From an uncultured Candidatus Saccharibacteria bacterium (GTDB lineage Bacteria; Patescibacteriota; Minisyncoccia; Phycocordibacterales; UBA9973): DNA of 43,196 bases. Shown here in pieces: positions 11,446 through 43,150 of this stretch. Made by a program: the position numbers and the translations under genes. The number at the start of each line of letters is the position of its first letter. The first letter of the stretch is position 1. The notes beneath the pieces were generated by a model that saw only the letters and a list, made by a program, of their open reading frames with translations, was not told the origin of the DNA and searched no databases. The stretch lies in contig CAYLXO010000003.1 of NCBI GenBank assembly GCA_964387965.1, positions 1 through 43,196 of the forward strand, in the 5' to 3' direction.

Positions 11446-11475
11446 TTGAAATCTGGAAAAAATGTTGATTATAGG
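11446..11475 (+). promoter_or_regulatory. candidate promoter for tRNA-Leu(CAA) and downstream genes
   Basis: TTGAAA (11446-11451), 18 nt, TATAGG (11470-11475), lying 18 nt before the tRNA 5' end. Confidence 0.35.
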
Positions 11476-11493
11476 TTAGTATCGTATCTGTTA

Positions 11494-11574
11494 GCCGGAG
11501 TGGTGAAATGGTATACACGATCGACTCAAAATCGATTGCCGAAAGGCGTGGGAGTTCAAGTCTCCCCTCCGGCA
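11494..11574 (+). tRNA. trnL(CAA): tRNA-Leu (anticodon CAA), type II with long variable arm, no encoded CCA
   Basis: Hand-folded. Acceptor GCCGGAG/CTCCGGC, anticodon stem ATCGA/TCGAT with loop CTCAAAA, variable arm TGCCGAAAGGCGT, T arm GGGAG-TTCAAGT-CTCCC, discriminator A. Confidence 0.9.
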
Positions 11575-11589
11575 CTATATAATATAAAT

Positions 11590-12150
11590 ATGATTGCAAA
11601 TAAGTGTGATCATGCATATATATTAGGGGTCGCACTTGGAGACGGAAATTTATCTAACCCGAATGGAAGAGCTATTCGTCTACGTATTACATGCGATAAA
11701 AAATATCCTAATTTAATTGAGCATATTAATAACAAACTAAAATGTGTATTACCGAAAAATAAAACATCATTTATTGATAGAAAAAATGCTTTAGACATTT
11801 GCTGCTATTCAAATAAGTTAAGTGACATTTTAGGATGGTCGGTTGGATCTAAAAAATCACAAAATGCACATATACCAGAATGGATTATGAAATCTGAAAA
11901 ATATTCCAGAGAATGTTTAAGAGGATTATTACAAACCGACGGATCCATATATCTAGACAGAGGATATCCAATGGTAAATTTTACAACAATAATAAAACCC
12001 TTAGCGGAAGATGTTAAAAATATAATTTTATTTTTAGGATACAAGCCTCAAGTACGATATGTTAAACATTCAAATAAATCCAAATATATTATACGCATAT
12101 CAAAAAACGTGACCGAGTTTATAAATGAAATCGATCTATGGAAAAATTAG
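11590..12150 (+). CDS. free-standing double-motif LAGLIDADG homing endonuclease
   Basis: Two LAGLIDADG-type motifs, ILGVALGDGNL and LRGLLQTDGSIY. It starts 15 nt after tRNA-Leu and its last 13 nt overlap the miaA start. It is visibly AT-richer than its neighbours. Confidence 0.8.
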   Translation: MIANKCDHAYILGVALGDGNLSNPNGRAIRLRITCDKKYPNLIEHINNKLKCVLPKNKTSFIDRKNALDICCYSNKLSDILGWSVGSKKSQNAHIPEWIMKSEKYSRECLRGLLQTDGSIYLDRGYPMVNFTTIIKPLAEDVKNIILFLGYKPQVRYVKHSNKSKYIIRISKNVTEFINEIDLWKN

Positions 12151-26993: not shown

Positions 26994-29900
26994 CTACTTA
27001 CAACCAAGAATTTTGTTAGCTTTCGTAATAGTTAATTTCCGTATCAGTCCTGTTGGATATTTTAATCCAGCGGGAGCTAATACATCGGTTGAATATTTTG
27101 TCTGAAATTTTTTAACTGCAGATATTGTCTGCACACCAAAGTATCCAGTTACTGGAAGCTTGAGAGAAAGTTCTTGATTCAAAAATGCTTGCCATAATTT
27201 TACTTGCGACACGTCATTGTTCTTCGACAAATAGATAAGTGTCGTTGAAACAAATGGGTTACATTCATATTCTTTATTATCAATTGGAGATATATATGTT
27301 AAACGCTCATTCAAGTTTTTAAGCGGTGGTCGTCCATACTGAATACGTCCCCCTCCACCACCGAGAGATGGAGCTACAGGCGTTGCAGATTCTGTACTTG
27401 ATGCTGTACTGGTTCCTGATGCATTTATTGTCGAAACACGAAAATCGTAATTTGAACCGTTTGAAAGTCCCGTTACTGTTGCGCTTGTACTTGTGGATGT
27501 ACCATCTGCAAATGTAGTCCATGAAGAATCTGCGTGTAGTTTATACTCGATGAGATAATCAGTTATTGAAGATCCTCCATTTGAAAGTGGTGCAGTCCAT
27601 GTGAGTGCTACTGTTGTGTTTCCAGCAGTTGCCGAAAGTCCCGTCGGCGCACCTGCAGTAGTGATAGGTATTCTGCTAATAGTTGCTGAAGGAAGACCTG
27701 TTCCAACACTATTTATTGCAGAAACACGAAAACTATAAATTGAACCATTTATTAATCCTGTAACGGTTGCACTCGTACTTGTTGAAACACCATCGGAAAA
27801 TGTATTCCATCCTACACCGTCATAGTATTCAACGAGATAATCCGTAATTGCTGAACCACCGTCAGAATCTGGTGCGGTCCATGTGAGTGCTACTTGAGTA
27901 TTTCCAGATGAACCAGTCAATAAACTAGGAGCATCAGGTTCTACAGCTGAGCTTGTACTTGCACTTGCAGTACCAGATGGTGAACTTGTAGCAACCGCTG
28001 TTACTGTTGAGACTCTAAACATATAGCTTGTCCCATATGAAAGACTAGTAACGGTAGCAGATGTAGTGTTTGATACTCCATCATCAAACGTTGACCATGA
28101 AATTGCACCAGTAGTTTTGTATTCAACAAGATAATCAAGAATTATCGATCCACCGTCAGAAACTGGAGCTGTCCACGACAAGCTTACTTCTGCTGTACCA
28201 CCTACGCCATTAAGACTTGTTGGAGAGCCGGGAGTTGTTACGGGGACTGCATACGACACAGCCGTTGGTGCTCCTGTTCCATACTCATTTACAGCAGACA
28301 CGCGAAACATGTATGACGTACCGTTAGTAAGACCTGAAATTGTCGCACTTGTGGTTGTTGATGCTACATGACTATATGCACTCCACACAGACGCACTCGC
28401 AGTTTTGTATTCAATATAATAATCAGTAATAGCTGAACCATTAGTATTTTCAGGTTCCGTCCATGTAAGGCTCGCCTGTGTGTTGCCTGATGTAACTGAA
28501 AGATCTGTTGGTACCGCAGGAACTGATGGACTTGTAATGGCCTCATCAAATGCTACTGCCCAATCGTACAATCGTTCTCCGGTACCATTTGATGCGGGAG
28601 AAGTTGTCGTGTCAGTATCGCGAATATTTCCCCCTACTGCTCCAGAATCGCCCGGCCCTCCACATGTAGCATACGCGTTATCATTTGGATGATTTTCACA
28701 TGTCCATGCATAACGAATGTGTGGATCAGTTCCATCAGGTGTACCAGACAAAGTAATTACAACCTTTTTATTTGTGGCATCAAGCACAACTGAGGATATT
28801 GATAGCGAACTTCCTCCAGTCTGATAAAATTCAAACCCTTTATTTGTTCGAAGAGCAACATTTGTTGTATCAACGGCGAGTGTACCTTCAGGAATATGGT
28901 AATCAATTGTGACGACGTTAGCCTCGTTTGTCACGGCAAGTGGCATGAGTGGGTTCCATGTCTCCCCGTCTACAAGTACTTTTTTCATAACTTTCGCATA
29001 CAATTCGCCAAGCATTTTTGAACCAAGACTTGAGAGATGTAGACCATCTGAATAATATCCGAGTTGGTACTTTGGCCCTACAAGTATGACTTTCCCTGAA
29101 TTATTTTTATGAGCATCCAGTTGAGCCACTGCGATTGTGCCTTCAGAATTAGTATTCATTTGAGACTCGAAAAGCGGAATTGAATCCGAGCGTCCAGTAA
29201 GTGCATTCCAATCACTCTCATAATCTATTTGCATCTGTGCTGTCTCAGATTCGTACGTACTTGCTGAAGTCCCTGCGATTGCGTCACTTTCCCCATGAGT
29301 AAGTGTGACACCAAATGGTAAATAATACGCACCCGCAGCAACTGTCTGTGCCTGTACTACAGAGGCTTGTGTTTGTCCGTTTGTATAGGCACTACCTGAA
29401 CCACCTTTTTTAATTGATGCGTATGTCTGCCCTCCCTGACCGTGAATCGTATCGACGAATACTGGATTACCAGACAGTGCAGCAGAAAGATAGTTTGCAC
29501 GACCAGATGCTGGAGACTCTCGTCCGTTCACTGTTTCAACAAGCGGGATAAGTGGAGCACTCAATCCTCCATCAGGACTATTTGAAAGACTTTTATTGTT
29601 ATATGGTTGTGTCGCAGTAAGTGCAGGTGATGAATTAACTCCTTCCGAAAGACTTTGTCCTGTTGAAAGAATGTGACGATATATCGAAGATCCTGCTCCC
29701 ACTGTTATTGCAGATGAAGCAACGCTCGTACCAACGGAATTTACTGCAGAAACTCGAAACATGTATGTTGTTCCGTTTGTAAGCCCAGTCACAGCTCGTG
29801 ACGTAGCAGTACTTGCACTATGAGAAAATGTAGACCATGAACCCGCAGAAATTGTCTTATATTCAATTTGATAATCAGTAATCGATGCTCCTCCATTATT

Positions 29901-31892
29901 TGCTGGAGCAGTCCATGAAAGAGAAACTTGGGTATTTCCCCCTGTTCCAGAGAGATTTGTTGGTGCATTTGGTTCAGTATGTGTTGATGACGGTGTACGG
30001 GAAATTGAACTTGTTGCGGTTCCAGCACCGGCATCACTAACAGCAGAAACACGAAAATCATAACTCACACCGTTTGTTAGACTTGTAACAATTGCACTTG
30101 CGCTTGTTGATACACCATCATTAAAAACATACCAAGTAGCCCCACTTGTTGTTTTGTATTCAACCATGTAGTCAGTAATATCATAACCTCCACTTGAAAC
30201 TGGAGCAGTCCAGGTGAGAGAAACTTGTTGGTATCCTGCTGTACCAGAAAGACTCGCCGGAGTTCCTGGCGCTGCCAAGGTTGTAAATGTTCTATCAATA
30301 CCGCAGCCTGTTCCAGCAGAGTTTTGTGCACACGCGCGATAATGATATGTTGTCCCCGCAGTAAGACCCCGTACTGATTCATTAAATGAACCAGTACTAA
30401 ATGACCCTGTATCTGCTACACTTTGCGATCCATAGCTAATAGTTGTTCCATATTCAATGTATCGTGACGTTGGATTTTCTCCTCCAGTAGAAGAAATTGT
30501 TCCTGTAAGAAGTGCACTTCCATGTGTAATCCCCGATGTTGTACTTGAAGTAGTAACAGTTGGCGCTACAGGACACGCACTCGTTGTAAACGATTGATCA
30601 GAACCAGTCCCTGTTCCACCTGTATTTGTGGCAAATGCTTGGTAATGATACGTCGTATTACACACAAGCCCAGTAATACTTGCTGTATAGGCGCCAGCAC
30701 TATAACTTCCACTTGTCGAAGAAGTCGTCCCATATCCAGTAGTAAGCCCATAATAAAATCCGCGCGTAGTAGGATTCTCATTCCCTGTCGAAGTTATGTT
30801 TCCGTTAAAAGTTGCTGTAGTTGTTGTAACAGAAGAAGCTGCACTTGTTGTAACACTTGGAGCAGACACAGGAGGAGTTCCTGCTGTCCAAATATCAGTA
30901 CTCGTTCCACCGATTACCCAATACGCACCGTCTGACGAAGAAGCAGCTTTTTTCCATGTCGCAGTGCCAGGTCCCGTCTCAGTCGTCCAGTTTGCTCCGG
31001 AGTTTGTCGAACTACGCACATTTACCGTTGATACTGCAATAAGCTTCGTGCCATCACTCGACATGGCAACAGATTGCCACAATCCTCCGCCACCAGTTCC
31101 TGCGTCAGTTTGATCAGTCCAGTTTACCCCTGAGTCGCTTGATGTATACAAATCTCCAGCAAACGATAATGTCGCAGCCAATTTTGTTCCATCAGATGAT
31201 GACGCAATAGATGTCCAAAAACCAAACGGAGACCCGGTACGCGCAGTCCAAGTATCTCCTGTATTTGATGATGTATAAATATAATCACCAAACATAGCCA
31301 CAGCAATTTTTGAACAGTCACTCGAACACGCAATAGCATTAGGTGTTAGAAGATCAAGTCCTGATGTGTCGGTCCAGCTTGAACCTGAATTTGTTGATTT
31401 CCAAAATCCAACCTTTCCTCCTCCGTTAGAAATCGCGACCATCGTTGCACCGTCACTCGACATGGCAAGACCAGTCCAAGAACCAGACCCAAGCGTTGAA
31501 GCATCCGTCCAGTTTGCTCCTGAATCAGTTGAATACCACAAATCTCCAGTGAGCTCACTTGCAAGTAGTACACTTCCATCAGCTGAAGAAGCCACGTGTT
31601 TCCAACGTTTCTGAAAAGCAGAGCCCCCGTTTGTGACAGTATTCCAAGTTATCCCTCCATCAGTTGAACGATACAAATATGAATCAGTGTCATAATTATC
31701 CGCTGCCAAAATTTTTGAACAATCACTTGAACACGCAATCCCTGTCCAAAAATGTGAACCCGAGGCTGTTCTATCAGTCCATGTTGTTGCAGTGGCAACG
31801 TATATAACGCGACAAAGGGATATAATCGAAACAAGAATAATAAGTAATACTTGTATGCGACCGAAGGTTAGGAATTTTTTCATAAATGTCAT
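26994..31892 (-). CDS. giant secreted multidomain surface protein: signal/TM, BNR (Asp-box) beta-propeller, 4 Fn3-like modules, SGNH/SASA-like esterase core plus beta-sandwich, 4 Fn3 modules, C-terminal peptidoglycan-binding domain
   Basis: Six Asp-box-like repeats (STDGGITW, STDSGANW, STNSGSSW, SSNTGDTW, SSDSGVNW, STNSGANW). Fn3 signatures (SLTWTAP...ITDY.IEYK...Y.FRVSA.N). TGQSLSEG, HGESD and DGLHLS esterase blocks. PG_binding_1-like VKLWQAFLN...GYFGVQTISAVKKFQ. The start is taken at the ATG at 31892, because the track start at 31907 is a GTG lying inside the -10 box. Confidence 0.85.
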   Translation of the reverse strand: MTFMKKFLTFGRIQVLLIILVSIISLCRVIYVATATTWTDRTASGSHFWTGIACSSDCSKILAADNYDTDSYLYRSTDGGITWNTVTNGGSAFQKRWKHVASSADGSVLLASELTGDLWYSTDSGANWTDASTLGSGSWTGLAMSSDGATMVAISNGGGKVGFWKSTNSGSSWTDTSGLDLLTPNAIACSSDCSKIAVAMFGDYIYTSSNTGDTWTARTGSPFGFWTSIASSSDGTKLAATLSFAGDLYTSSDSGVNWTDQTDAGTGGGGLWQSVAMSSDGTKLIAVSTVNVRSSTNSGANWTTETGPGTATWKKAASSSDGAYWVIGGTSTDIWTAGTPPVSAPSVTTSAASSVTTTTATFNGNITSTGNENPTTRGFYYGLTTGYGTTSSTSGSYSAGAYTASITGLVCNTTYHYQAFATNTGGTGTGSDQSFTTSACPVAPTVTTSSTTSGITHGSALLTGTISSTGGENPTSRYIEYGTTISYGSQSVADTGSFSTGSFNESVRGLTAGTTYHYRACAQNSAGTGCGIDRTFTTLAAPGTPASLSGTAGYQQVSLTWTAPVSSGGYDITDYMVEYKTTSGATWYVFNDGVSTSASAIVTSLTNGVSYDFRVSAVSDAGAGTATSSISRTPSSTHTEPNAPTNLSGTGGNTQVSLSWTAPANNGGASITDYQIEYKTISAGSWSTFSHSASTATSRAVTGLTNGTTYMFRVSAVNSVGTSVASSAITVGAGSSIYRHILSTGQSLSEGVNSSPALTATQPYNNKSLSNSPDGGLSAPLIPLVETVNGRESPASGRANYLSAALSGNPVFVDTIHGQGGQTYASIKKGGSGSAYTNGQTQASVVQAQTVAAGAYYLPFGVTLTHGESDAIAGTSASTYESETAQMQIDYESDWNALTGRSDSIPLFESQMNTNSEGTIAVAQLDAHKNNSGKVILVGPKYQLGYYSDGLHLSSLGSKMLGELYAKVMKKVLVDGETWNPLMPLAVTNEANVVTIDYHIPEGTLAVDTTNVALRTNKGFEFYQTGGSSLSISSVVLDATNKKVVITLSGTPDGTDPHIRYAWTCENHPNDNAYATCGGPGDSGAVGGNIRDTDTTTSPASNGTGERLYDWAVAFDEAITSPSVPAVPTDLSVTSGNTQASLTWTEPENTNGSAITDYYIEYKTASASVWSAYSHVASTTTSATISGLTNGTSYMFRVSAVNEYGTGAPTAVSYAVPVTTPGSPTSLNGVGGTAEVSLSWTAPVSDGGSIILDYLVEYKTTGAISWSTFDDGVSNTTSATVTSLSYGTSYMFRVSTVTAVATSSPSGTASASTSSAVEPDAPSLLTGSSGNTQVALTWTAPDSDGGSAITDYLVEYYDGVGWNTFSDGVSTSTSATVTGLINGSIYSFRVSAINSVGTGLPSATISRIPITTAGAPTGLSATAGNTTVALTWTAPLSNGGSSITDYLIEYKLHADSSWTTFADGTSTSTSATVTGLSNGSNYDFRVSTINASGTSTASSTESATPVAPSLGGGGGRIQYGRPPLKNLNERLTYISPIDNKEYECNPFVSTTLIYLSKNNDVSQVKLWQAFLNQELSLKLPVTGYFGVQTISAVKKFQTKYSTDVLAPAGLKYPTGLIRKLTITKANKILGCK

Positions 31893-31898
31893 TTGTAA

Positions 31899-31926
31899 AT
31901 AATACACCTAACATGGTTAATTTTCA
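31899..31926 (-). promoter_or_regulatory. promoter of the giant gene, TTGAAA-N16-TATTAT, apparently leaderless
   Basis: On the minus strand: TTGAAA (31926-31921), 16 nt, TATTAT (31904-31899), then 6 nt and the ATG at 31892. Confidence 0.5.
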
Positions 31927-33708: not shown

Positions 33709-34515
33709 ATGAGTGCAGGAAACACATCGTCCACTCAAAGTGGACAGAAGAAAAAAAGTAAGTGGTGGAAAAAGTGGTTGAAAAAGTTGATTGGTCTTAC
33801 AGTCCTTGCAGGACTGGCATGGCTTATCACACAAGCAATCATTCACACCGATTTCAGTAGTGGCATCGGTTGGAAAGGATGGGTTGCACTTACGATTCTT
33901 GTGATAGTTATCGGATTGCTATCATATGCAATCTACCTGCTAACAAGAAAAAAGAAAGCTGCAGACCCACACGGAGCAAGCACTGGTCCACACGGTGGTG
34001 CGGAACATAATCACGGAACACCCACTATGAAATTTTGGGAGTTCGTTGGAAGGGTGCTTTTACCCACTGCATTATTATTGGGAGCAAGCTGGATTATTTT
34101 TCAAAAATATCTGGTATTCAAATCTGAACAAGAAGCAGAGGAAAAAGCAAAAAGTGAATCACCGTATAAAACATATACGAGCGGTTCGCCTGCCACGCAG
34201 ACAGAAAAAAAGCATGACACGCGCATAAACAAACGCAGACTCATGCCAGGAGTATTACTACTTGTAGTAGTACCTGACGGTAATAAAATTACCGTAACCC
34301 ACACAGGTGGAGACTTTTATAGCTATGTTGGTAATGACACTACCGACTTGTTAAACAAAATGGCTCTCACTAACTGTGGAGACAACAGGGATGTACCAAG
34401 CAATCACTATATGGCATACATGCGCAAAGACAATATTATTTGTGACATAACCATAGAAGTGACTGAAGAAAATCCTTATAGTCCGTTTGAGGTGTACGAT
34501 ATCACCTTAAAATAA
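33709..34515 (+). CDS. multi-TM membrane protein with a Lys-rich N-terminus, a His-rich loop and a C-terminal soluble domain
   Basis: KKKSKWWKKWLKK, three hydrophobic segments and PHGASTGPHGGAEHNHG. It lies 3 nt after the upstream stop. Confidence 0.55.
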   Translation: MSAGNTSSTQSGQKKKSKWWKKWLKKLIGLTVLAGLAWLITQAIIHTDFSSGIGWKGWVALTILVIVIGLLSYAIYLLTRKKKAADPHGASTGPHGGAEHNHGTPTMKFWEFVGRVLLPTALLLGASWIIFQKYLVFKSEQEAEEKAKSESPYKTYTSGSPATQTEKKHDTRINKRRLMPGVLLLVVVPDGNKITVTHTGGDFYSYVGNDTTDLLNKMALTNCGDNRDVPSNHYMAYMRKDNIICDITIEVTEENPYSPFEVYDITLK

Positions 34516-34563: not shown

Positions 34564-34887
34564 TTACTGTACTTGTAAGTTTGGATTTGGATCAGCACCA
34601 ATTGTATTGCCGATCAGATTTAAGATTGCAAACGCACCAAACATAATCACCATTCCGAGCAATCCCCAGAGCATGTGACTTTGACCCTTTTCTCTTCCCT
34701 CTGCAGATGTTGAATTCATAAGAAACTCAAACACGCCGTACAAAAAGTACACAAGCGCTGCCGCAAACATAAGAATTATAAGCGGATTAAATATATATCT
34801 ATCGAGCTTACCGACAAATGTTGCTACTGGCGATTCGTCAGCAAATACTGTTGGTATAGCAAAATAATTTAGAAAAAGTGAGATCAT
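34564..34887 (-). CDS. small two-helix pilin-like protein A (TrbC/VirB2-type layout)
   Basis: Short signal peptide, TM1 LIILMFAAALVYFLYGVFEFL, loop NSTSAEGREKGQ, TM2 MLWGLLGMVIMFGAFAILNLI. It is paralogous to the next five genes. Confidence 0.6.
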   Translation of the reverse strand: MISLFLNYFAIPTVFADESPVATFVGKLDRYIFNPLIILMFAAALVYFLYGVFEFLMNSTSAEGREKGQSHMLWGLLGMVIMFGAFAILNLIGNTIGADPNPNLQVQ

Positions 34888-34893
34888 ATATAT

Positions 34894-34899
34894 ATTATA
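34894..34899 (-). promoter_or_regulatory. -10 box TATAAT 6 nt upstream of the pilin-like A start (leaderless)
   Basis: On the minus strand: TATAAT-atatat-ATG. It lies directly after the 34924-34949 terminator. Confidence 0.4.
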
Positions 34900-34923
34900 T
34901 AAAAGTCAGTCGCAAAAACAAAA

Positions 34924-34949
34924 CGACCCCGAGCAAATGCTCGGGGTCG
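34924..34949 (-). terminator. intrinsic terminator after pilin-like B
   Basis: CGACCCCGAGC-aaat-GCTCGGGGTCG, followed on the minus strand by TTTTGTTTTT. Confidence 0.75.
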
Positions 34950-34958
34950 AATCGTTTT

Positions 34959-35348
34959 TTAGAATGTTGGGAGCTGTGATTCGACGTTGATCGAATTGCT
35001 TCCTGAAAGTCCAAATGTTGAGAGGAGAAGTGTTACAAGACCCCAGAGGCCAAGGATAACAGCAAATCCGATAATTCCGTGAAGCATTGTTCCACGAGCC
35101 TGACTCTTTTCTTCTGCGTCAGATGCAGTGATGAACTTCACGATACCCCAGATAAACCATGCAACTGCACCAAGAATAAGAACTGGGATTGCAATCTTGA
35201 TAAGCTGATACACTTTACAGATGATACCTTCGAGTGTTCCAAGTCCGTAATTTCGTACAGTACATGAAATTGAACTCTGAGCAAAAGCAGAAAGTGGAGC
35301 AAGGATTGAAAGGGCTCCTGCACCAATGTATGCGATTTTGTTTTTCAT
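34959..35348 (-). CDS. small two-helix pilin-like protein B
   Basis: Signal peptide ...PLSAFAQS, a Cys pair, TM1, loop FITASDAEEKSQARG, TM2 MLHGIIGFAVILGLWGLV. Confidence 0.6.
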   Translation of the reverse strand: MKNKIAYIGAGALSILAPLSAFAQSSISCTVRNYGLGTLEGIICKVYQLIKIAIPVLILGAVAWFIWGIVKFITASDAEEKSQARGTMLHGIIGFAVILGLWGLVTLLLSTFGLSGSNSINVESQLPTF

Positions 35349-35429
35349 GATAACTCTTCGCGCAAGCCCCTTTCGGGAAGCGCAATCTAAACGCTAATAA
35401 ATAATTTTTGACCTTTTAATTGTACATTA

Positions 35430-35438
35430 ATTATACCA
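35430..35438 (-). promoter_or_regulatory. extended -10 promoter (TGgTATAAT) for pilin-like B, with a long structured leader
   Basis: On the minus strand: cgTGgTATAAT, about 80 nt upstream of the ATG at 35348. Confidence 0.45.
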
Positions 35439-35470
35439 CGAATATCTATAAGTCTAGGAGATACTGTGGA

Positions 35471-35992
35471 TTATTGAACCTCTTTGTTCACTGGAAGCTG
35501 AGGGATAACGGTGCGTAGACCAAATGTATTGTTGAGCACTGCTGTAAGACTCCACACTGAAAGCATAACTGCGAGTGCAATAACCCCCCAAAGCATAAAT
35601 TGTCTTCCCTGTTCCTTTTCTGCAGAATCTGATGCTTGAATAAACTTGACCGTTCCCCACACGAAAACCGCGAGCGCTACTGCAAAAAGAAGCGGGATGA
35701 CTGATTGCAATATAAGACAAGTGAGGTACTTAAGCACTTCAGTTACATTTTTAAATGGTGCGGCCGGTGCATCTTTACAGTACCCTCCTCCAGAATTAGT
35801 TGTATCGGCTACTCCTGTATCTGATGTACCAGAACCACCGCCTCCTGAAAATCCACTAAAATCTGGATTGCTTGTTCCATCCCCAAAAGCGCTACCACCT
35901 GTAAGACTCTGTGCGTTTGCAACTGCAGAAAAAGTTGTAAGAACTAGACCCACAAAAAGAACTGCAAAAATGTATCGTGCGTATGTTTTCAT
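35471..35992 (-). CDS. two-helix pilin-like protein C with a Gly/Ser/Thr-rich N-terminal spacer
   Basis: Signal peptide ...AVANAQS, a G/S-rich region, a Cys pair, TM1, loop FIQASDSAEKEQGRQ, TM2 MLWGVIALAVMLSVW. Confidence 0.6.
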   Translation of the reverse strand: MKTYARYIFAVLFVGLVLTTFSAVANAQSLTGGSAFGDGTSNPDFSGFSGGGGSGTSDTGVADTTNSGGGYCKDAPAAPFKNVTEVLKYLTCLILQSVIPLLFAVALAVFVWGTVKFIQASDSAEKEQGRQFMLWGVIALAVMLSVWSLTAVLNNTFGLRTVIPQLPVNKEVQ

Positions 35993-35994
35993 AA

Positions 35995-36696
35995 TTAAAA
36001 CTGACTAAATATATCTTTTATTGCTAATGAGAAACCTTTCGCGATAAGTACTATTGTGGCGCCAATGAGTGTATAAAGCAATGCTTTCTTTGCGTTTCCA
36101 ATTTCTTCTGGATTTCCACGTGCAGATATAAACAGGAATCCTGTCCACAAAATCATAATAACGATAATAGGAGTAAGAAGAAGTACTGCCGAATCAATCA
36201 CCTTTGCAATAAAACCTTGCACGTTATTCGCTTGTATCGGGTTTACGTATCTAATATGAATATTTGTATCATTACCACCACCAGCTGGAGGAGGAACATT
36301 TGTCGTATCGCCAATATCCTTTCCTGTTGCTGCTGGAAATACTGAATTTGATTCAGCAGACTTCACACTTGTACCATTTTTATTTTTAGCTGTGACAACA
36401 AATTTGTATGTTTGACCATTTACTAGTCCAGACATTGTAATTGGTGATGATTTGCCAGTTTCAACTTGTACAGGTGCTGGACCAGAAACAACGGTACTAA
36501 CAGTATATTCAGTCGTAAGATCAAAACTTGTACTTACATCAGGTGTGAAATACACAGTTACTTTTTCGTCGCCCGCTTCTGCCCGCACATTTGTTGGTGG
36601 AAGTGGAGCTGCTGCATATACAGAAAAACTAGTAAAACCAATTCCAAAGAGAGCAACAGCAAGAAGTATTTTTTTAAATGCCATACAGTATTTCAT
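35995..36696 (-). CDS. one Fn3 module fused to C-terminal two-helix pilin-like module (D)
   Basis: Signal peptide, Fn3 (PPTNVRAEAGDEKVTVYFTP...GQTYKFVVTAKNKNG), then VLLLTPIIVIMILWTGFLFISARGNPEEIGNAKKALLYTLIGATIVLIA...SQF. Confidence 0.65.
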   Translation of the reverse strand: MKYCMAFKKILLAVALFGIGFTSFSVYAAAPLPPTNVRAEAGDEKVTVYFTPDVSTSFDLTTEYTVSTVVSGPAPVQVETGKSSPITMSGLVNGQTYKFVVTAKNKNGTSVKSAESNSVFPAATGKDIGDTTNVPPPAGGGNDTNIHIRYVNPIQANNVQGFIAKVIDSAVLLLTPIIVIMILWTGFLFISARGNPEEIGNAKKALLYTLIGATIVLIAKGFSLAIKDIFSQF

Positions 36697-36702
36697 AATA
36701 AA

Positions 36703-39210
36703 TTAAAACTGATTAAGAGTATTAGTAAGTGCACTCGCAATAACTTTTGCACCAAGTACGAGTGCTGCACCGACAAGAGTATACATAAGAATTCGTTTTG
36801 CAGTAGAAAGCTCCTCTGGATTTCCTCGTGCTTTTACAAACAGAAATCCGCTTGCAATAAGTGCGAGTACAAGAAGTGGTGTAAGAAGAAGCACGAGTGC
36901 ATCAAGCACCCTTGCAACAAATTCTTCCATAGTGCTACTCTTGAGCGGATTTTTTATTTGAAAATATTTGCTTATATCTGAAACATTATTCGAATCAGAT
37001 CCATCTCCATCAGTTTTATCAATACCACCGGTATCTTTGCCTGTAGCAATTGGAATTACTTCATTTGAATCAGCTGTCGGCCCATCACCCTTACTGTTTG
37101 TAGCAAGAACTCGAAACGTATAAGATAGACCGTTTGTTAAATTTGAAACATATAAACTAGTACCCTTTGTCGTAGTGTGTTTAAAACCATTATTTTCATC
37201 TGTCGAAACAAGTTCAACAGTATAAGAAGTAATTGGAAAACCTCCATCATTTTCTGGCGCTTGCCAATATACAGTAGCTCCGGTATTGCCTGATTTAGCT
37301 GTCACATTACGTGGTGCGTTCGGAGTGCCTGAGGGTTTTACTGGATTTGAAGAATTAGAAATTGAACCCCAAAATCCATCAGAATCTTGAGCTCTAACCG
37401 TAAATGAATACGTCTTTCCATTTATAAGTCCTTTTACGCTTATTGGTGATGTCGTGTTGCTTGCATATATTCCTTCTGGTGTAGATTGAATAGCATAAAA
37501 TTTAATCCTCGATCCGGGAGAGGAAGTAACAGGTTTTACAGTATCAAAAAAGACAGTAGCCTCTTTATCTCCTGCAGTTGCTCGTACATTTAGTGGCGCT
37601 GTTGGATATAACGTAACTGGGCCGTTTGGAATAACTTTTTTTGTAATTGCTGAATATGGACCCGCGATTCCGTCAGTATCAACTGCTCGAATTTCAAATT
37701 GATATCCTTTACCGTTCTCAAGACCCACTACCGTTATGGGCGAGGTTGGCCCACTCGCAAAAGTACGTCCATCTGGAGTAATACGGACTGAATAATATTG
37801 TATCTTTGAGCCAGCCGATGAACTTGCTGGTGGAGGTTCGGTAAACGTAAGCTTTACACTCATATCATCAGGTGTAGCAACAATATTACTCGGAATACCA
37901 GGGACAAGACTTGCTCCCTCCCATTTAAACAAGAGCGAACTCGTAATCTTTGAATATGGCCCCATAAAACCATCAGTATCAACTGCTCGCACCTCAAACT
38001 TATATGATTTTCCGTTTTCGATTCCAGAAACTGTTATTGGTGATGTATTGCCACTTGAAAAACTTCCTACATCTGGGGTTGTGCGAACAATGTAGTACTT
38101 GATTTGAGAACCTGACGAAGGACTTGCTGATTTAGGTGGAGTAAATGAAACAATCGCGGTTCCGTATGAACCTTTTTCTACTTTAACATCAGTAGGACTA
38201 GTGGGAGCAAGTGAAGTAAACAACGTAGTAAAACTTCCAGTAGTGTATGAAGTTGTTCCTGTTGCATCTTTTAAACTATACGCATAAGTCGCACCAGGAA
38301 TTAAATCAGAAATTGGAAATGAAAAGTCGCCACTAGCACCAAGTGTAAAAGATTTTTGATTTTCTTTTCCAGCGTATGAATATACAAACAGTAATGAGGT
38401 GCCCGAAACTGATCCAGATTTTTTTGAACCTGAAACAACTACACTCGTTTCCTCGGGTTTTACATTTACAGTAAAGTCAGACTTTACTGGTGTCGAAAAA
38501 TTTCCAGTGTATATCTTTTTACCCGTAGAAACATTAGTGAGACTATAACTATAACTTGTATTCTCGGTAAGATTTTTTAGGAGAATCGAAAGATCACCTT
38601 GCGCGCTTGTCGTAGAAGCCTGCTCGCTACCTGAATTTGATTTACTAGAATAATCGACTTTAAACTTTGTGCCTGTGACTGTATTTGAAATTTTTGCATA
38701 AAAAGCTGCAGTATTATATGTGGGTGAAATAGAAACAGACACTGTTGCTGTTCCTGTCGTACTCCCTGTGCTTCCACCTGTTGTACCTCCAGTGCTTGTC
38801 CCGCCAGTACCTGTACCTGTAGTTGTCGTTCCTCCAGAGCCCTTCACAATTGACGCGCAACTTGAATCAGGACCCGAATCAAGCACCGCTCCGCTTGAGT
38901 GGATAACTGAACCAAATACTTTTATACAAAGTGAGCTAGGGACTACTGCTTCAATTTTTAGAGTAATTGGTGAACTTGCTCCTTGGGCCTCAAAATAATT
39001 TGAATCAAAACCTGCATACACATAATACCGTGAAATTACTTCGCCTTCAGTAGTGACAGCTGGTGAAAATGACACACTAAAATTATTGAGCGATGTTTCA
39101 GTTGCAACAACGTTTGTTGGTGCTTGTATCTTTGCAAAAGCTCCGTGTGGTAATGCACACACAAGTAGCACAGAGAGCAGTCCAATAATTTTTTGTATAT
39201 GTTTTTTCAT
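36703..39210 (-). CDS. about seven Fn3/Ig-like modules fused to C-terminal two-helix pilin-like module (E)
   Basis: Signal peptide MKKHIQKIIGLLSVLLVCALPHGAFA (start at 39210), a G/T-rich linker, repeated Fn3 modules, and C-terminus LVLLLTPLLVLALIASGFLFVKARGNPEELSTAKRILMYTLVGAALVLGA...NQF. Confidence 0.7.
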   Translation of the reverse strand: MKKHIQKIIGLLSVLLVCALPHGAFAKIQAPTNVVATETSLNNFSVSFSPAVTTEGEVISRYYVYAGFDSNYFEAQGASSPITLKIEAVVPSSLCIKVFGSVIHSSGAVLDSGPDSSCASIVKGSGGTTTTGTGTGGTSTGGTTGGSTGSTTGTATVSVSISPTYNTAAFYAKISNTVTGTKFKVDYSSKSNSGSEQASTTSAQGDLSILLKNLTENTSYSYSLTNVSTGKKIYTGNFSTPVKSDFTVNVKPEETSVVVSGSKKSGSVSGTSLLFVYSYAGKENQKSFTLGASGDFSFPISDLIPGATYAYSLKDATGTTSYTTGSFTTLFTSLAPTSPTDVKVEKGSYGTAIVSFTPPKSASPSSGSQIKYYIVRTTPDVGSFSSGNTSPITVSGIENGKSYKFEVRAVDTDGFMGPYSKITSSLLFKWEGASLVPGIPSNIVATPDDMSVKLTFTEPPPASSSAGSKIQYYSVRITPDGRTFASGPTSPITVVGLENGKGYQFEIRAVDTDGIAGPYSAITKKVIPNGPVTLYPTAPLNVRATAGDKEATVFFDTVKPVTSSPGSRIKFYAIQSTPEGIYASNTTSPISVKGLINGKTYSFTVRAQDSDGFWGSISNSSNPVKPSGTPNAPRNVTAKSGNTGATVYWQAPENDGGFPITSYTVELVSTDENNGFKHTTTKGTSLYVSNLTNGLSYTFRVLATNSKGDGPTADSNEVIPIATGKDTGGIDKTDGDGSDSNNVSDISKYFQIKNPLKSSTMEEFVARVLDALVLLLTPLLVLALIASGFLFVKARGNPEELSTAKRILMYTLVGAALVLGAKVIASALTNTLNQF

Positions 39211-39211
39211 A

Positions 39212-41311
39212 TTAGAAGAAAGTTGGGAAATATGACACATTGTATCCCATGCCGACCATAACCATCTTAACAATAATCCACGCGGCAAATGCAATAATAA
39301 GTCCAGTTATAACCTTCATAAAAATTGTTTTTGCTTGGCTTATCTTTTCTGCGTTTCCAGCAGATGTAAGCATGAGAAAACCTCCGTACAAGAACATAAG
39401 CGCAGCAAGTCCAGGGGCAAGCGCAAACATCAAAAAGTTAATAATGTTATTGATGAGTTTAATAAGATGCTCAAATGTACAGGTAGTACGCGTACCTGCT
39501 ACGTTTACTCCAGTACATGGGATGATACCTCCGTTATCTTCTGGCTCGAATGTGCCGATAGTTCCTCCATTTGAAGGTCCAACAATATACGGAATAGTTC
39601 CTGCATCATCAGCAGTCTTACCAGTTATAAACTGAAACAGGTACGAATATGTTGGTTGTGCATCAATATCAGTAGACGTAATTTTTATATCGTAATAGTA
39701 CGTAGTATCAGGTGTAAGATCTTCAAGTTTTGCACTCCATGTGCCATCAGAATTCTTATTCATGCCAACAGCAGTCTCAAGATTATCTGAATCTGTGCCA
39801 TATTCTATTTCAAGTGCCGAAACTCCATCAGAAGCCTTTGCAACAATAGTCGCATTGTCTCCCGCGACAATAGATGCACCCGGATCAACACGTATGGGTA
39901 ATGTTTCAAAATATGCAATGCGACTGTATACGTTCAAGTCATTTATCGGATTACCGATATACAACATATACAGATGATTTGGCATCAAGTTTGTGATTTT
40001 TTCTTCGAAACGTCGTGTTTTTGTATCAATTCTTGGAGCAAAGTTTGTATATGTTGGACCGTCTACTTGATACAAATATATTTCGACATCTTTTTTGAAA
40101 TTTACTACTTCACCACTAATAGTGACACTTGTTTGTGACTGATTGTATACATGTGAGTACGCAATAATTCCTGGAGAATAAAGCATGTCACGCTTGTCTG
40201 GCGCATAGCTTCCTCCAGCACCTGCACCATACCCCTGACCTCCCCCGCCATCTCCCATATCCGGAGCTGGACTCGCTGATGCAAGTGTTGAAAATGATCC
40301 AGCCTGTGATAATGGATTATTTTTTGAATCAAATACCTGAAAATAATATGTAGTATCAGCAATAAAACCTGTTGTTTCAAAAGTAAAATCAGGATCCGCA
40401 TCTGTAGTCTTTGTATCTACAAGCAAATCAAGTTTTGATGGACTTGTTCCGTAATGAATATATGCCTGCTGTTTTTCACCTTTAAAAGTACCTGTAATTA
40501 CTACCGAAGTAACTCCAGGCGCCACATCGGTAATCGAGACAGTATTCGCGCCGACTGGTAATTCATCAATACCAAAAAATCCTGAAGATCCTGTGATGAA
40601 TGTGTGACCTTTATCATAAAAAGAATAATTGTATGAGCCGGGTTGTAAATCACTCACAGCTACTTCAAATGTATCGTTTTCCCCTACCGCTCCTTGTTTT
40701 GTGATTGTGGCAACTTTTGTGATCGGCTCTTCTTCAGGACCAGTTCCATTAGTAACTAACTTTTGAACTGAAATCGCAAATGTTTTTGCATCATACAAAC
40801 CATGTGTAATCTCACCTGTAAATAGAAACGACACATCATCCGTCGGAGCATAATCAAGATTTGAAATAACGAGCGTCGAAGAAGTAGTTCCTCCAGTTTG
40901 TCCACCGCACCCAGCAACCGTTGGCTTAAACAAAAACGATCCATACCCAAACGGTGCTCCAAATTCTGCTCCATCCTTAAAATGATAACTATACGTATAG
41001 CCAGCTCTGAGCCCAGAAAGAGTTGCCGAGAGCTCAACACCAGATGTGACAGTGCGAAGCGAAACTGGTGCAGTAAGTTCTTTTGTAGTTCCGATTTGAT
41101 ATATAACAGTAAGAGGTTCAGTATATGTGCCTACAAGCATTCCATCCATTTCAGCTGTTGTACACGAAATATCTTGTGCAACAAAAATATTTTTTGCATC
41201 AAGTGCCGCCTGTGCGTGTGTACCAAAAAATACTGTGCTAAGAACAATAGTTCCCAACAAAATCGCACGAAGCTGTTTTATTTTTTGATACATATATTTA
41301 TATATTAGCAC
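39212..41311 (-). CDS. roughly five Ig/Fn3-like modules fused to C-terminal two-helix pilin-like module (F)
   Basis: Signal peptide ...FFGTHAQA and repeated beta-sandwich modules ending Y.Y.F...G.F.T. The C-terminus carries a Cys pair, then FLMFALAPGLAALMFLYGGFLMLTSAGNAEKISQAKTIFMKVITGLIIAFAAWIIV. The start may instead be at 41293. Confidence 0.7.
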   Translation of the reverse strand: MLIYKYMYQKIKQLRAILLGTIVLSTVFFGTHAQAALDAKNIFVAQDISCTTAEMDGMLVGTYTEPLTVIYQIGTTKELTAPVSLRTVTSGVELSATLSGLRAGYTYSYHFKDGAEFGAPFGYGSFLFKPTVAGCGGQTGGTTSSTLVISNLDYAPTDDVSFLFTGEITHGLYDAKTFAISVQKLVTNGTGPEEEPITKVATITKQGAVGENDTFEVAVSDLQPGSYNYSFYDKGHTFITGSSGFFGIDELPVGANTVSITDVAPGVTSVVITGTFKGEKQQAYIHYGTSPSKLDLLVDTKTTDADPDFTFETTGFIADTTYYFQVFDSKNNPLSQAGSFSTLASASPAPDMGDGGGGQGYGAGAGGSYAPDKRDMLYSPGIIAYSHVYNQSQTSVTISGEVVNFKKDVEIYLYQVDGPTYTNFAPRIDTKTRRFEEKITNLMPNHLYMLYIGNPINDLNVYSRIAYFETLPIRVDPGASIVAGDNATIVAKASDGVSALEIEYGTDSDNLETAVGMNKNSDGTWSAKLEDLTPDTTYYYDIKITSTDIDAQPTYSYLFQFITGKTADDAGTIPYIVGPSNGGTIGTFEPEDNGGIIPCTGVNVAGTRTTCTFEHLIKLINNIINFLMFALAPGLAALMFLYGGFLMLTSAGNAEKISQAKTIFMKVITGLIIAFAAWIIVKMVMVGMGYNVSYFPTFF

Positions 41312-42623
41312 CTACTTGGTAGAGTTTGTTGCCCGCATCAAGAAGCGAAATATCGAGTGTCGCAATTCCAGAACTTACAGAATACAAAAGATCTTTGAAA
41401 ATAGTACTTGAACTCTTTGGATTTGGATCTACCCATGTTCTCATTACGAGCGCGACGTTGTAGAGATATGACATATATGCATCATGGGCAGGTTTATTTG
41501 CAAGTACATCACGTCGTGTCGGCACAAATGAAAATTGTGTCCCGCTTGAATCAATAAGCAATTGTTCGTTGTCTACCAAAAGTTTTGCAGCAGCCGCTGA
41601 AAGTGTTTTATCTTTTGCACCGTTTGGAATTGCTAACCCGTATAGTCCCCCATTTGTAAGTGGAACTTTTGCAGTTTTGAATTGTGGAGGAAGACTAATA
41701 TTAAAATTAAGGTTTGGATTTTGTGCACGTACTATAGGAATTTCACTTGCACGTCCAAAATAATACACAAGTGCTCCTCGAACAAATGCATCTCTGTCGT
41801 TCATCATACCGTCATGCCATGAGTAGAGTGGGTCGACAGGATTTGAATATGAAAGATAAAAGTTGACTGCATTTTTTGCAGCAGACGCCTCAGTGTTGTT
41901 TGTATTAGCACCAAAGTGAACAGTGAAATCGCCTGTTTGAGAATAATTTGCAACCGGATTACCTCCTTGCATAAAAAGAAGTGTAAGTACGTCTTTTGCA
42001 TTGGTAACATTTTTGTAGGTTCCGAGCGCTGCTGCACTTTGTGTGATTGTTAAGTCACTTGTCTTTTTTGTAAGCGACGACACCGTTCCAGAAAAATCTG
42101 GCCATGTTTTTGGAGGCACAGCGATACCACTCGCTGCAAGTAAATCTTGGTTGTAATACATGACGAGCGGATCAGCAATCCACGGAATCGCAACATAGCC
42201 GTCTGGCATAGCAAAGATGTCTGCTGCAGAAATATATGACGATGCAAACGTCTGAGCAGAGAGTGATGTAAATGGTATGTGCATAAATTTGTCACGAAAA
42301 CGGTATGACAAATTATCCGGCAAAAGCACAAGATCAGGAACCGAATTTTTTGCGACCGCTTCAACAAAATCAGTATCAAATGTAAGCGGATCTTTCTCTA
42401 TGTACTGCACATGAACGTCAGCATTTGCGATATTGAAACTTGCAATAAATTTTTGAAACATCTGTTGATTTACAGTGCCCCATATAGTGACTGATCCTGC
42501 AACTTTCTGTGTAGATGTTCCGCCAAGATTAATAATCCCAGCAAACGACAAAACTCCGGCAATCGCACCAACAATAAAAATGCCGATAAAAACAACTTTA
42601 AAATTTGATGCTTGTGTTGCCAT
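41298..42623 (-). CDS. membrane-anchored extracellular solute-binding protein (ABC family 1 type), orphan
   Basis: N-terminal TM helix, VTIWGTV...PDLVLLPDN, IPWIADPLVMYYNQDLLAASGIAVPPKTWPDF. No permease or ATPase gene lies nearby. Confidence 0.7.
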   Translation of the reverse strand: MATQASNFKVVFIGIFIVGAIAGVLSFAGIINLGGTSTQKVAGSVTIWGTVNQQMFQKFIASFNIANADVHVQYIEKDPLTFDTDFVEAVAKNSVPDLVLLPDNLSYRFRDKFMHIPFTSLSAQTFASSYISAADIFAMPDGYVAIPWIADPLVMYYNQDLLAASGIAVPPKTWPDFSGTVSSLTKKTSDLTITQSAAALGTYKNVTNAKDVLTLLFMQGGNPVANYSQTGDFTVHFGANTNNTEASAAKNAVNFYLSYSNPVDPLYSWHDGMMNDRDAFVRGALVYYFGRASEIPIVRAQNPNLNFNISLPPQFKTAKVPLTNGGLYGLAIPNGAKDKTLSAAAAKLLVDNEQLLIDSSGTQFSFVPTRRDVLANKPAHDAYMSYLYNVALVMRTWVDPNPKSSSTIFKDLLYSVSSGIATLDISLLDAGNKLYQVGANI

Positions 42624-42625
42624 GA

Positions 42626-43150
42626 TTAGTTCTTACAAAATATCATACCATAGTGATAATCTCCGGCATCGATATCTTTTTCTTTTTTAAACCCATGTCG
42701 TTCAAAAAGTGCACATGTTGCTTTCTCGTCAACACGATGATGAGGATGTGGACCAAAATCTGTATCATTATGCCAGTCAATTACCATAACTTTTCCTCCA
42801 GGACGAAGCATGCGCTTTATTTCTTTTACAAAATTTTCTCGATCATCAATTTGAAACAAAATATTTGAAGCAATTGCTTTATCCAAACTCGCATCAGAAA
42901 GTGGCACTCCTTTTGGTGAAGACAAATCTCCCCAAATAGGATGCACGTTTGTATGACCGAGGTGCTTTGCCTCTGCTACTAGGCGTGAGAGCATTTCTTT
43001 TTCGATATCAACGGCAAATAGTCTGCCTCCTTCAAGCCGAGGGGCAGCATGCAAAGCAAAATGACCTGATCCTGTTCCAAGATCAGCCACGTCTTGTGCT
43101 CCGTACACTCCAAACTGGCGAAGTGCGTCGAGTGGGTCAAGAAATCGCAT
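42626..43150 (-). CDS. class I SAM-dependent methyltransferase
   Basis: Motif I VADLGTGSGHFA and motif post-II RPGGKVMVIDW. The start is taken at MRFLDP (43150). Confidence 0.75.
   Translation of the reverse strand: MRFLDPLDALRQFGVYGAQDVADLGTGSGHFALHAAPRLEGGRLFAVDIEKEMLSRLVAEAKHLGHTNVHPIWGDLSSPKGVPLSDASLDKAIASNILFQIDDRENFVKEIKRMLRPGGKVMVIDWHNDTDFGPHPHHRVDEKATCALFERHGFKKEKDIDAGDYHYGMIFCKN

Follow-up and report, generated by a model that had tools for sequence, protein, structure and literature searches.

A run of six genes on the minus strand of contig CAYLXO010000003.1 (Candidatus Saccharibacteria, assembly GCA_964387965.1; the 43,196 nt examined here are called the window) encodes, at positions 34564-41311, proteins that all end in the same two-helix module of the Pfam family T4SS_pilin (PF18895; T4SS, type IV secretion system). 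Judged by sequence comparison, Paceibacteria encode this array as a set of five orthologous families in fixed order, designated P1 to P5 after array positions 1 to 5, and the six genes of the window are these five families with position 2 duplicated in its lineage. We propose that the products form a heteromeric envelope assembly, most probably a pilus- or stalk-like fibre of a T4SS encoded elsewhere in the genome with adhesin stalks on P1 and P2, and we put the chance that this reading is correct at about even. Arrays of about six divergent PF18895 pilins are already known from candidate phyla radiation (CPR) genomes (PMC12102498, PMC10633639, PMC12857230). What is absent from the literature searched is the fixed set of five families, its coupling to a solute-binding protein (SBP)-like protein and a methyltransferase, and the adhesin-type fusions that recur at positions 1 and 2.

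The evidence for the five families comes from 80 loci of 80 Paceibacteria/Parcubacteria species, which were collected by scanning species-representative genomes with an alignment of the type of g233 (gNNN stands for the window protein of that length in amino acids, aa), a query that biases the collection toward genomes with a g233-type module at position 2. Open reading frames (ORFs) were called in all loci and searched with a hidden Markov model built from the six window modules, yielding 391 module-bearing ORFs that form a single co-directional array in each locus. The array comprised five genes in 48/80 loci, six in 11/80 and four in 10/80. When the best BLASTP match of each window module was determined in each of the 48 five-gene arrays, the module of g699 found its counterpart at position 1 and that of g107 at position 5 in 47/48 arrays each. 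The modules of g835 and g233 both pointed to position 2 (42/48 arrays each), that of g129 to position 4 (42/48) and that of g173 to position 3 (31/48). As g233 aligns with residues 627-835 of g835, i.e. the last Fn3 domain, linker and module (39% identity over 216 aa), the Fn3-module unit in one position-2 copy was probably expanded by internal Fn3 duplication. The original prediction had regarded all six proteins as paralogues of one kind; the shared module bears this out, whereas their being equivalent or interchangeable does not hold, since they fall into five orthologous families and one duplication.

The individual parts of the operon differ in conservation. In comparisons with two relatives (L001 and L003), identity is 73-90% for the modules (89-90% for that of g107), 37-62% for the ectodomains, whose lengths also differ, 62-65% for the SBP-like protein and 70-72% for the methyltransferase. 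Going by these values, constraint is strongest in the module hairpins, and the ectodomains vary most of all parts of the operon. Gene order is kept in other samples of the window species and in relatives with 60-65% identity in the 233-aa protein, namely methyltransferase, SBP_bac_1-like protein, two large module proteins, and then proteins of about 230, 173-190, 129 and 107 aa. Two samples show small differences that could reflect strain-level variation or gene calling. In a 64.6-kb contig of the window species (L007, ENA ERZ27283041; 12067-12651, compared with window 34959-35348), no gene was called at the expected site of the 129-aa position-4 protein, and in another sample (L005, 17159-17731) the position-3 protein has 190 aa instead of the 173 aa found in the window. 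Several metagenome-assembled genomes labelled 'uncultured Candidatus Saccharibacteria' (L012, L014-L016, L023, L027 and others; binchicken co-assemblies) also carry the locus of methyltransferase, SBP-like protein and five pilin-like proteins, as do Nomurabacteria and Yonathbacteria; either these labels are generic or the locus reaches beyond Paceibacteria.

The module occupies the last 75-90 aa and consists of an amphipathic helix, a first transmembrane (TM) helix, a short charged loop, a second TM helix and a tail. Among the six window proteins the C-terminal modules share 13-47% pairwise identity, and within the window the module is confined to these six genes. PF18895 (gathering score 26.6 bits) was matched at the C-terminus of all six proteins, in five of them above the gathering score and in g107 below it. 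This Pfam call is independent of the module alignment and agrees with the earlier assignment to T4SS_pilin, a family widespread in CPR genomes, and the loop motifs quoted along with that assignment were each found verbatim. Orthologues of g107 often have a precomputed PF18895 match. The array proteins also share the architecture of PF18895, in which a signal peptide precedes a hydrophobic hairpin of two helices joined by a short polar loop. Five window proteins have canonical leaders ending in AXA-type sites. The claim that every gene of the array encodes a signal peptide is thus sound for these five and not fully secure for g107, whose leader is short and uncharged (MISLFLNYFAIPTVFA) and some of whose orthologues have no leader at all.

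A profile over 423 modules showed the amphipathic N-helix, the first TM helix, a loop of 14 residues, the second TM helix and the tail. The first half of the loop is acidic and the second basic, with one position occupied by K/R in 92% of the modules. Lysine and arginine residues number about 3.2 per module in the loop, 1.0 in the N-terminal flank and 0.5 in the tail, as would be expected if the loop were cytoplasmic and both termini faced outward. Conserved Cys pairs immediately precede the module. Because of the signal peptide, the two TM helices with a K/R-rich loop (positive-inside rule) and the conserved Cys pairs, the Fn3 arrays are predicted to lie outside the cell and not in the cytoplasm, in keeping with the surface role originally suggested. 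An AlphaFold2 (AF2) model of g129 based on an alignment of 109 sequences had a mean predicted local distance difference test (pLDDT) score of 76.7 and consisted of a long helical hairpin (residues 39-74 and 78-111) at pLDDT 83-91. The AF2 model of g233, computed from the single sequence, was of low confidence (pLDDT 57) and was used for secondary-structure layout only; it contained a beta-sandwich (residues 34-119), a disordered linker and a helical hairpin (residues 153-232).

All six ORFs listed in the original prediction (107, 129, 173, 233, 835 and 699 aa) are present, all on the minus strand. At position 1, g699 (39212-41311) has a signal peptide, five PAP-N/Fn3-like beta-sandwich units, a Cys pair and the C-terminal module (coding region 39215-39484). 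By reading of the sequence, the units span approximately residues 36-128, 145-246, 254-343, 376-470 and 475-563; Pfam detected three Pur_ac_phosph_N-like stretches, and PF18895 with 38.8 bits at residues 619-683. The first copy of position 2, g835 (36703-39210), which would comprise 863 aa if started at an upstream TTG, has a signal peptide, seven beta-sandwich units, a linker and the module (36706-36975). Its units, again read from the sequence, comprise one N-terminal Fn3-like domain (residues 27-122), two with the signature 'L.P.T.Y.Y...F.T' (155-241 and 244-329) and four canonical Fn3 domains (336-428, 437-527, 536-625 and 630-722). In Pfam, fn3 was matched with E = 6e-37 in 5 stretches and PF18895 with 28.6 bits at residues 759-828. 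The second copy, g233 (35995-36696), consists of a signal peptide, one Fn3 domain, a Gly/Pro-rich linker and the module (35998-36267), with 37.9 bits for PF18895 and 26.3 bits for fn3. The counts of one, about seven and about five beta-sandwich units that had been given for g233, g835 and g699 were therefore right, and together these ectodomains span a range of 120-720 aa. The remaining three proteins are small. At position 3, g173 (35471-35992) has a signal peptide, a Gly/Ser-rich low-complexity stretch, a Cys pair and the module (35474-35743; PF18895 30.5 bits). At position 4, g129 (34959-35348), a candidate for the abundant subunit, has a signal peptide, a Cys pair and the module (34962-35231; 35.7 bits). 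Position 5 is taken by g107 (34564-34887), the most conserved member, which has its short leader and the module (34567-34836) and scores 20.5 bits, under the gathering score.

Large ectodomains are not peculiar to the window. Across the 80 species, 21 ORFs from 19 species carry at least 150 aa of ectodomain before the module, 19 of these ORFs at position 1 and 2 at position 2. In all ten fused ORFs tested, PF18895 was above threshold at the C-terminus, and the ectodomains were made up of Fn3/PAP-N-like units, TIG/IPT domains or, in a 926-aa protein, five InlB B-repeats. A profile search of 1.84 billion representative proteins gave 52,568 matches at E <= 1e-3, among them proteins with Cys-rich ectodomains and polypeptides with 2-17 tandem modules; the ranking by summed score lists only multi-module proteins and therefore gives no unbiased frequency of fusions. 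The module nearly always stands at the extreme C-terminus. The longest tandem series noted, about 17 modules, is found in a relative of 1775 aa (multi-module examples include P0011, P0015 and P0040). Within arrays, tandem fusion is almost confined to position 3, which in other species is often a fusion of 2-3 modules (L018, L021, L043, L044 and others). The window, in which three members are fused and two of these are very long, represents the elaborate end of a recurrent fusion theme. No description of large ectodomains, Fn3 or other, fused to a PF18895 module was found in the literature searched; the original prediction, too, had known of no system in which Fn3 arrays are joined to pilin modules.

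Another Fn3 protein of the window, secreted and 1637 aa long (26994-31907, minus strand), has a peptidoglycan-binding domain (PG_binding_1) at its C-terminus and contains at least 6 Fn3 domains, which share 28-33% identity with the Fn3 repeats of g835. The gene is syntenic in the close relative L001 and present in 3/80 more distant loci, and its product may have donated Fn3 repeats or be a partner anchored in the wall.

The array does not stand alone. Directly upstream lies the gene of a sugar-type SBP-like protein of 441 aa with an N-terminal TM anchor (41298-42623, minus strand), whose 3' end shares 14 nt with the start of g699. Against PDB sequences, the protein gave remote matches to maltose and other sugar SBPs (best 8art_A, E = 2e-7), and its orthologues carry PF01547 (SBP_bac_1). 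In 73/80 loci a TM-anchored SBP-like protein of about 432 aa is encoded directly ahead of the array and on its strand, the median gap being -6 nt; in this arrangement the array is translationally coupled to the SBP-like gene. The conserved block starts with a class I S-adenosylmethionine-dependent methyltransferase of 174 aa (42626-43150, minus strand; Pfam Methyltransf_25/11/31), for which NCBIfam gave generic UbiE/ArsM-like matches only. A methyltransferase of about 176 aa occupies this place ahead of the SBP-like gene, about 1.3 kb upstream of the array and on the same strand, in 69/80 loci, and GyrA precedes it in 61/80. Both partners lie just beyond the limits that the original prediction had set for the array and were missed by it.

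Junctions within the array are conserved as well. In the 48 five-gene arrays, the gaps between P1, P2 and P3 are 6-9 nt and that between P4 and P5 is about 13 nt, whereas the gap before P4 has a median of 105 nt and is kept in 90% of them, other junctions being shorter than 15 nt. P4-P5 thus appears to be a separate sub-unit of the operon, and the conserved stretch of about 105 nt ahead of it may harbour an internal promoter or RNA element. In the window this gap (35349-35470, minus strand) has 122 nt and contains a promoter-like site at 35448-35419; promoter-like matches overall do not exceed shuffled expectation, so that the site before g129 is suggestive only. An Rfam scan of the intergenic gaps returned only tRNAs and no RNA element before P4. 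A strong hairpin follows P5 in 96% of the 48 arrays. The window differs in that its hairpin, a terminator- or attenuator-like stem-loop of perfect 11 bp (9 G-C) with T-runs on both strands (34924-34949, minus strand), lies between g129 and g107, and its lineage may attenuate transcription ahead of position 5.

The other window genes have housekeeping functions (DnaX, Dus, FtsQ-like, SerRS, DprA, TopA, RelA, ParB, MiaA, FemAB, Mur ligase, ClpB, NifS, IF-2 and seven tRNAs). Convergent with the array is a gene for a multi-TM protein of 268 aa (33709-34515, plus strand) with a sub-threshold match to a 'pilin-like conjugal transfer protein' family of Mycoplasma integrative and conjugative elements (ICEs) (E = 1e-4, residues 52-87); no homologue was found in the 80 other loci. 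An ORF of 234 aa (11446-12150, plus strand) adjoins and overlaps tRNA-Leu(CAA) (11494-11575) and matches a gene of L008 annotated as LAGLIDADG_3 homing endonuclease. It may encode a mobile endonuclease beside the tRNA gene and ParB.

Neither VirB4, VirB6, VirD4, TrsD nor a type IV pilus ATPase is encoded in the window, and no T4SS genes were found 10-20 kb past either end, where housekeeping genes continue. The same holds for VirB4, VirB6 and VirD4 within 10 kb of the array in all 80 species (0/80). Hence the remark in the original prediction that no secretion or pilus machinery lies nearby applies to the flanks and to related species as much as to the window, and missing machinery is the norm for the Paceibacteria locus rather than an anomaly. 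Table S1 of PMC12102498 includes 11 of the 80 genomes with an array, 8 of them as VirB4-positive and 3 as VirB4-negative. Array and T4SS thus usually coexist in a genome but are unlinked.

We envisage the operon of methyltransferase, SBP-like protein and P1-P5 as the Paceibacteria version of the 'VirB2-like pilin array'. P1 to P5 would be non-redundant subunits of a single heteromeric envelope assembly, most probably a pilus or stalk-like fibre of a chromosomal monoderm-type T4SS located elsewhere in the genome. The small proteins P4 and P5, together with P3, would make up the bulk of the structure, and P1 and P2 would be present in low copy number or at the tip, displaying their Fn3/Ig stalks as host-attachment adhesins; the division into major and minor subunits put forward in the original prediction is thus plausible. 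These stalks would thereby supply the adhesin function that monoderm T4SSs take from separate proteins such as PrgB, and the co-translated SBP-like protein might contribute glycan recognition or assembly. Distinct and constrained roles of P1-P5 are suggested by the position-specific orthologues, the conservation of the modules and the maintenance of array size and sub-structure. By analogy with the T4SS-cluster genes of Southlakia epibionticum and with the pilins found near virB4, and given that 8/11 listed genomes are VirB4-positive, a functional tie of P1-P5 to a T4SS is probable.

Kinship of the module to genuine conjugative pilins is weaker than the match to TrbC/VirB2 assumed in the original prediction. 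With PF04956 (TrbC/VirB2; cutoff 27.9 bits) the window proteins scored 11.9-19.3 bits, i.e. below the cutoff, over the region matched by PF18895, and such matches recur in many members. Likewise below threshold were matches to the Mycoplasma ICE family mentioned above, including those of g129 and g233. An hhalign comparison of 417 modules with 8 genuine VirB2/TrbC proteins from plasmids gave a probability of 2% (P = 0.025; reversed controls about 0.3), the sensitivity being limited by a narrow set of alphaproteobacterial MPF_T proteins only. In a Foldseek search of the g129 model against the PDB, the best E-value was 0.68; generic hairpins were found and no pilin among the top 50. The top matches were hairpins of encapsulated ferritins, a two-helix hairpin being too simple to discriminate. 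A search of PDB chain sequences with the module profile also found no pilin, only designed helical proteins at E > 0.1. A remote relationship to VirB2 is accordingly a hint from sequence, and homology to canonical VirB2 is not demonstrated.

This lack of a clear pilin match in sequence or structure weighs against a T4SS fibre, as do several further points. No PF18895 pilus has so far been observed in any organism. In Paceibacteria, 80/80 arrays are unlinked to T4SS genes and are instead, in 73/80 loci, coupled to the SBP-like gene. The co-occurrence with VirB4 (73%, 8/11) is no higher than the base rate of the phylum (80%; 2,417/3,035 Patescibacteria genomes are VirB4-positive, PMC12102498), with the added qualification that the three VirB4-negative array genomes are incomplete drafts. 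An N-terminal extension of 600-750 aa is unprecedented for a conjugative pilin and might clash sterically with filament packing. Finally, relatives with 2-17 modules per polypeptide are easier to picture as polytopic membrane proteins.

Several of these observations would be explained if the operon encoded a membrane complex independent of any T4SS, in which the hairpin is an anchor and hetero-oligomerisation module and P1-P5 together with the SBP-like protein display stalks and a glycan-binding domain through a thin wall for host attachment or sensing. The missing linkage to T4SS genes (80/80) and the coupling to the SBP-like gene (73/80) favour such a complex somewhat, and it is also in line with the three array genomes listed as VirB4-negative, the non-significant similarity to solved pilins, the existence of tandem multi-module polypeptides and the very C-terminal position of the module, which follows unrelated ectodomains (Cys-rich, Fn3, TIG, InlB-repeat). 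Nevertheless, a simple anchor needs no five conserved and ordered families, four of which are usually small with almost no ectodomain. Moreover, the helices of 34-36 residues exceed the span of a bilayer, the PF18895 family sits in a T4SS cluster and is essential in Saccharimonadia, and the VirB4-negative genomes are the draft assemblies just mentioned. We regard this explanation as the main rival of the fibre, though less likely than it. That the operon specifies a T4SS-independent heteromeric envelope organelle with one subunit per family (conceivably arranged as a hetero-pentameric layer or cap, which would echo the five-fold layers of conjugative pili and the VirB5/VirB6 pentamers), adhesin stalks on P1/P2 and a glycan-binding SBP-like partner, and that this organelle is the main device for host attachment or uptake, seems unlikely to us; if it were true, 'T4SS pilin' would be a misnomer for the Paceibacteria branch of PF18895.

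The tight coupling of the SBP-like gene, with no ABC permease or ATPase nearby, could also be read as an SBP-dependent uptake system, in which a channel or permease built from the five two-TM proteins (ten helices) is fed by the SBP-like protein and the term 'pilin' is misplaced. CPR bacteria rely on nutrient scavenging (PMC12102498), and one relative gave a weak DctQ-like match. As this match was below threshold, the operon has no energising component, large adhesin-like ectodomains and Cys-rich N-terminal parts are atypical of permease subunits and PF18895 is associated with T4SS genes in other classes, we consider uptake improbable. About as improbable is the notion, put forward for the multiple VirB2 paralogues in Bartonella and Anaplasma and raised in PMC12102498 for CPR arrays, that the array members are interchangeable pilin variants serving antigenic or host-range variation. 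Their low identity (13-47%, in line with the reported average of 25%), the fast divergence of the ectodomains and the shifts in repeat number between species would suit it. However, every member is matched across 48 species by an orthologue specific to its position, conservation is higher in the modules than in the adjacent genes, and array size and operon sub-structure are maintained, so that only the ectodomains act as variable parts. A holin-like or phage-derived origin, for which the size and two TM helices of the small proteins might speak and which would have run counter to the original prediction, was rejected. None of the three small proteins matched a PHROG family and the window contains no endolysin or phage gene. 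The chromosomal site, kept in 80 species between GyrA and housekeeping genes, the cleavable signal peptides and the large ectodomains leave this origin with practically no probability.

Patescibacteria account for a large share of bacterial diversity and are seemingly host-attached, and attachment is little understood beyond a few Saccharibacteria. A PF18895 array is essential in the sole organism tested. The fixed five-part set with its SBP-like partner and repeated gain of adhesin repeats replaces the vague concept of 'variable pilins' by a testable structural hypothesis. If the proposed fibre exists, its subunits would be the first relatives of conjugative-type pilins that carry large fused ectodomains; if it does not, the annotation of tens of thousands of proteins as 'T4SS pilin' needs rethinking.

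The closest known counterparts of the array are found in Patescibacteria themselves. PF18895 and PF04956 have been used to catalogue 'VirB2-like pilins' in 3,035 genomes of this group (PMC12102498). Such pilins occur in 1,948 VirB4-positive assemblies and lie close to virB4 in 1,135/1,948 of them. The same study counted 441 arrays of 2-11 genes with an average identity of 25% (Fig. S9), an array being defined by 2-11 PF18895/PF04956 genes in tandem or one gene apart, and the counted arrays being those near virB4, i.e. within 20 coding sequences. The array of the window conforms to this definition in its tandem genes of low identity and departs from it in the lack of a nearby virB4. In S. epibionticum, six PF18895 genes (SEML1_0014-0019) encoding proteins of 103-185 aa lie beside genes for a VirB6-like protein, VirB4 and PrgI, and all are essential according to transposon sequencing (PMC10633639); this array was highlighted in a 2025 review (PMC12857230). 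In Patescibacteria parasitising methanogens, genes with a T4SS_pilin domain belong to the most strongly expressed genes without known function (PMC10936435). The array of the window resembles the S. epibionticum type in having about six tandem co-directional PF18895 genes with about 25% identity, proteins composed of signal peptide and hairpin, and a location on a monoderm CPR chromosome. In contrast to the described arrays of small proteins of 103-185 aa next to virB4/virB6, it includes three large ectodomains and shows no T4SS linkage, and it is further set apart by the coupling to SBP-like protein and methyltransferase and by five position-specific families.

With canonical TrbC/VirB2 and F-type TraA, the array proteins share module size, a long signal peptide, a hairpin with a short loop containing basic residues, and the predicted extracytoplasmic location of both termini. 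An N-terminal fusion is topologically possible because the N-terminus of the module is predicted to be extracytoplasmic. To our knowledge, every canonical conjugative pilin is a single small protein that lacks a large ectodomain. Unlike in TrbC/VirB2, sequence similarity is sub-threshold and there is no structural match above noise. The genetic setting differs as well, since TrbC/VirB2 genes sit beside VirB1/VirB3/VirB4 and diderm systems place a separate protein, VirB5, at the tip. Type IV pili and type II secretion systems use one major and four minor pilins, the larger members of which are thought to act at the tip in adhesion or priming. The array resembles such minor-pilin or pseudopilin sets in that about five distinct paralogous pilin-like subunits are encoded together. 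However, type IV pilins have a different fold (a globular head on one N-terminal TM helix) and different machinery (PilB/GspE ATPases and a prepilin peptidase), and there is no homology. PrgB of pCF10 offers a functional parallel, as it too contains Ig-like/beta-sandwich repeats and provides the proposed contact of a monoderm T4SS with the target cell. Homologues of PrgB were not detected in CPR genomes (PMC12102498), and the array offers a candidate for the adhesin that PrgB-like searches missed in their T4SSs. In contrast to PrgB, which is a separate, LPXTG-anchored protein, the adhesin-like repeats of the window are fused straight onto a pilin-like membrane module.

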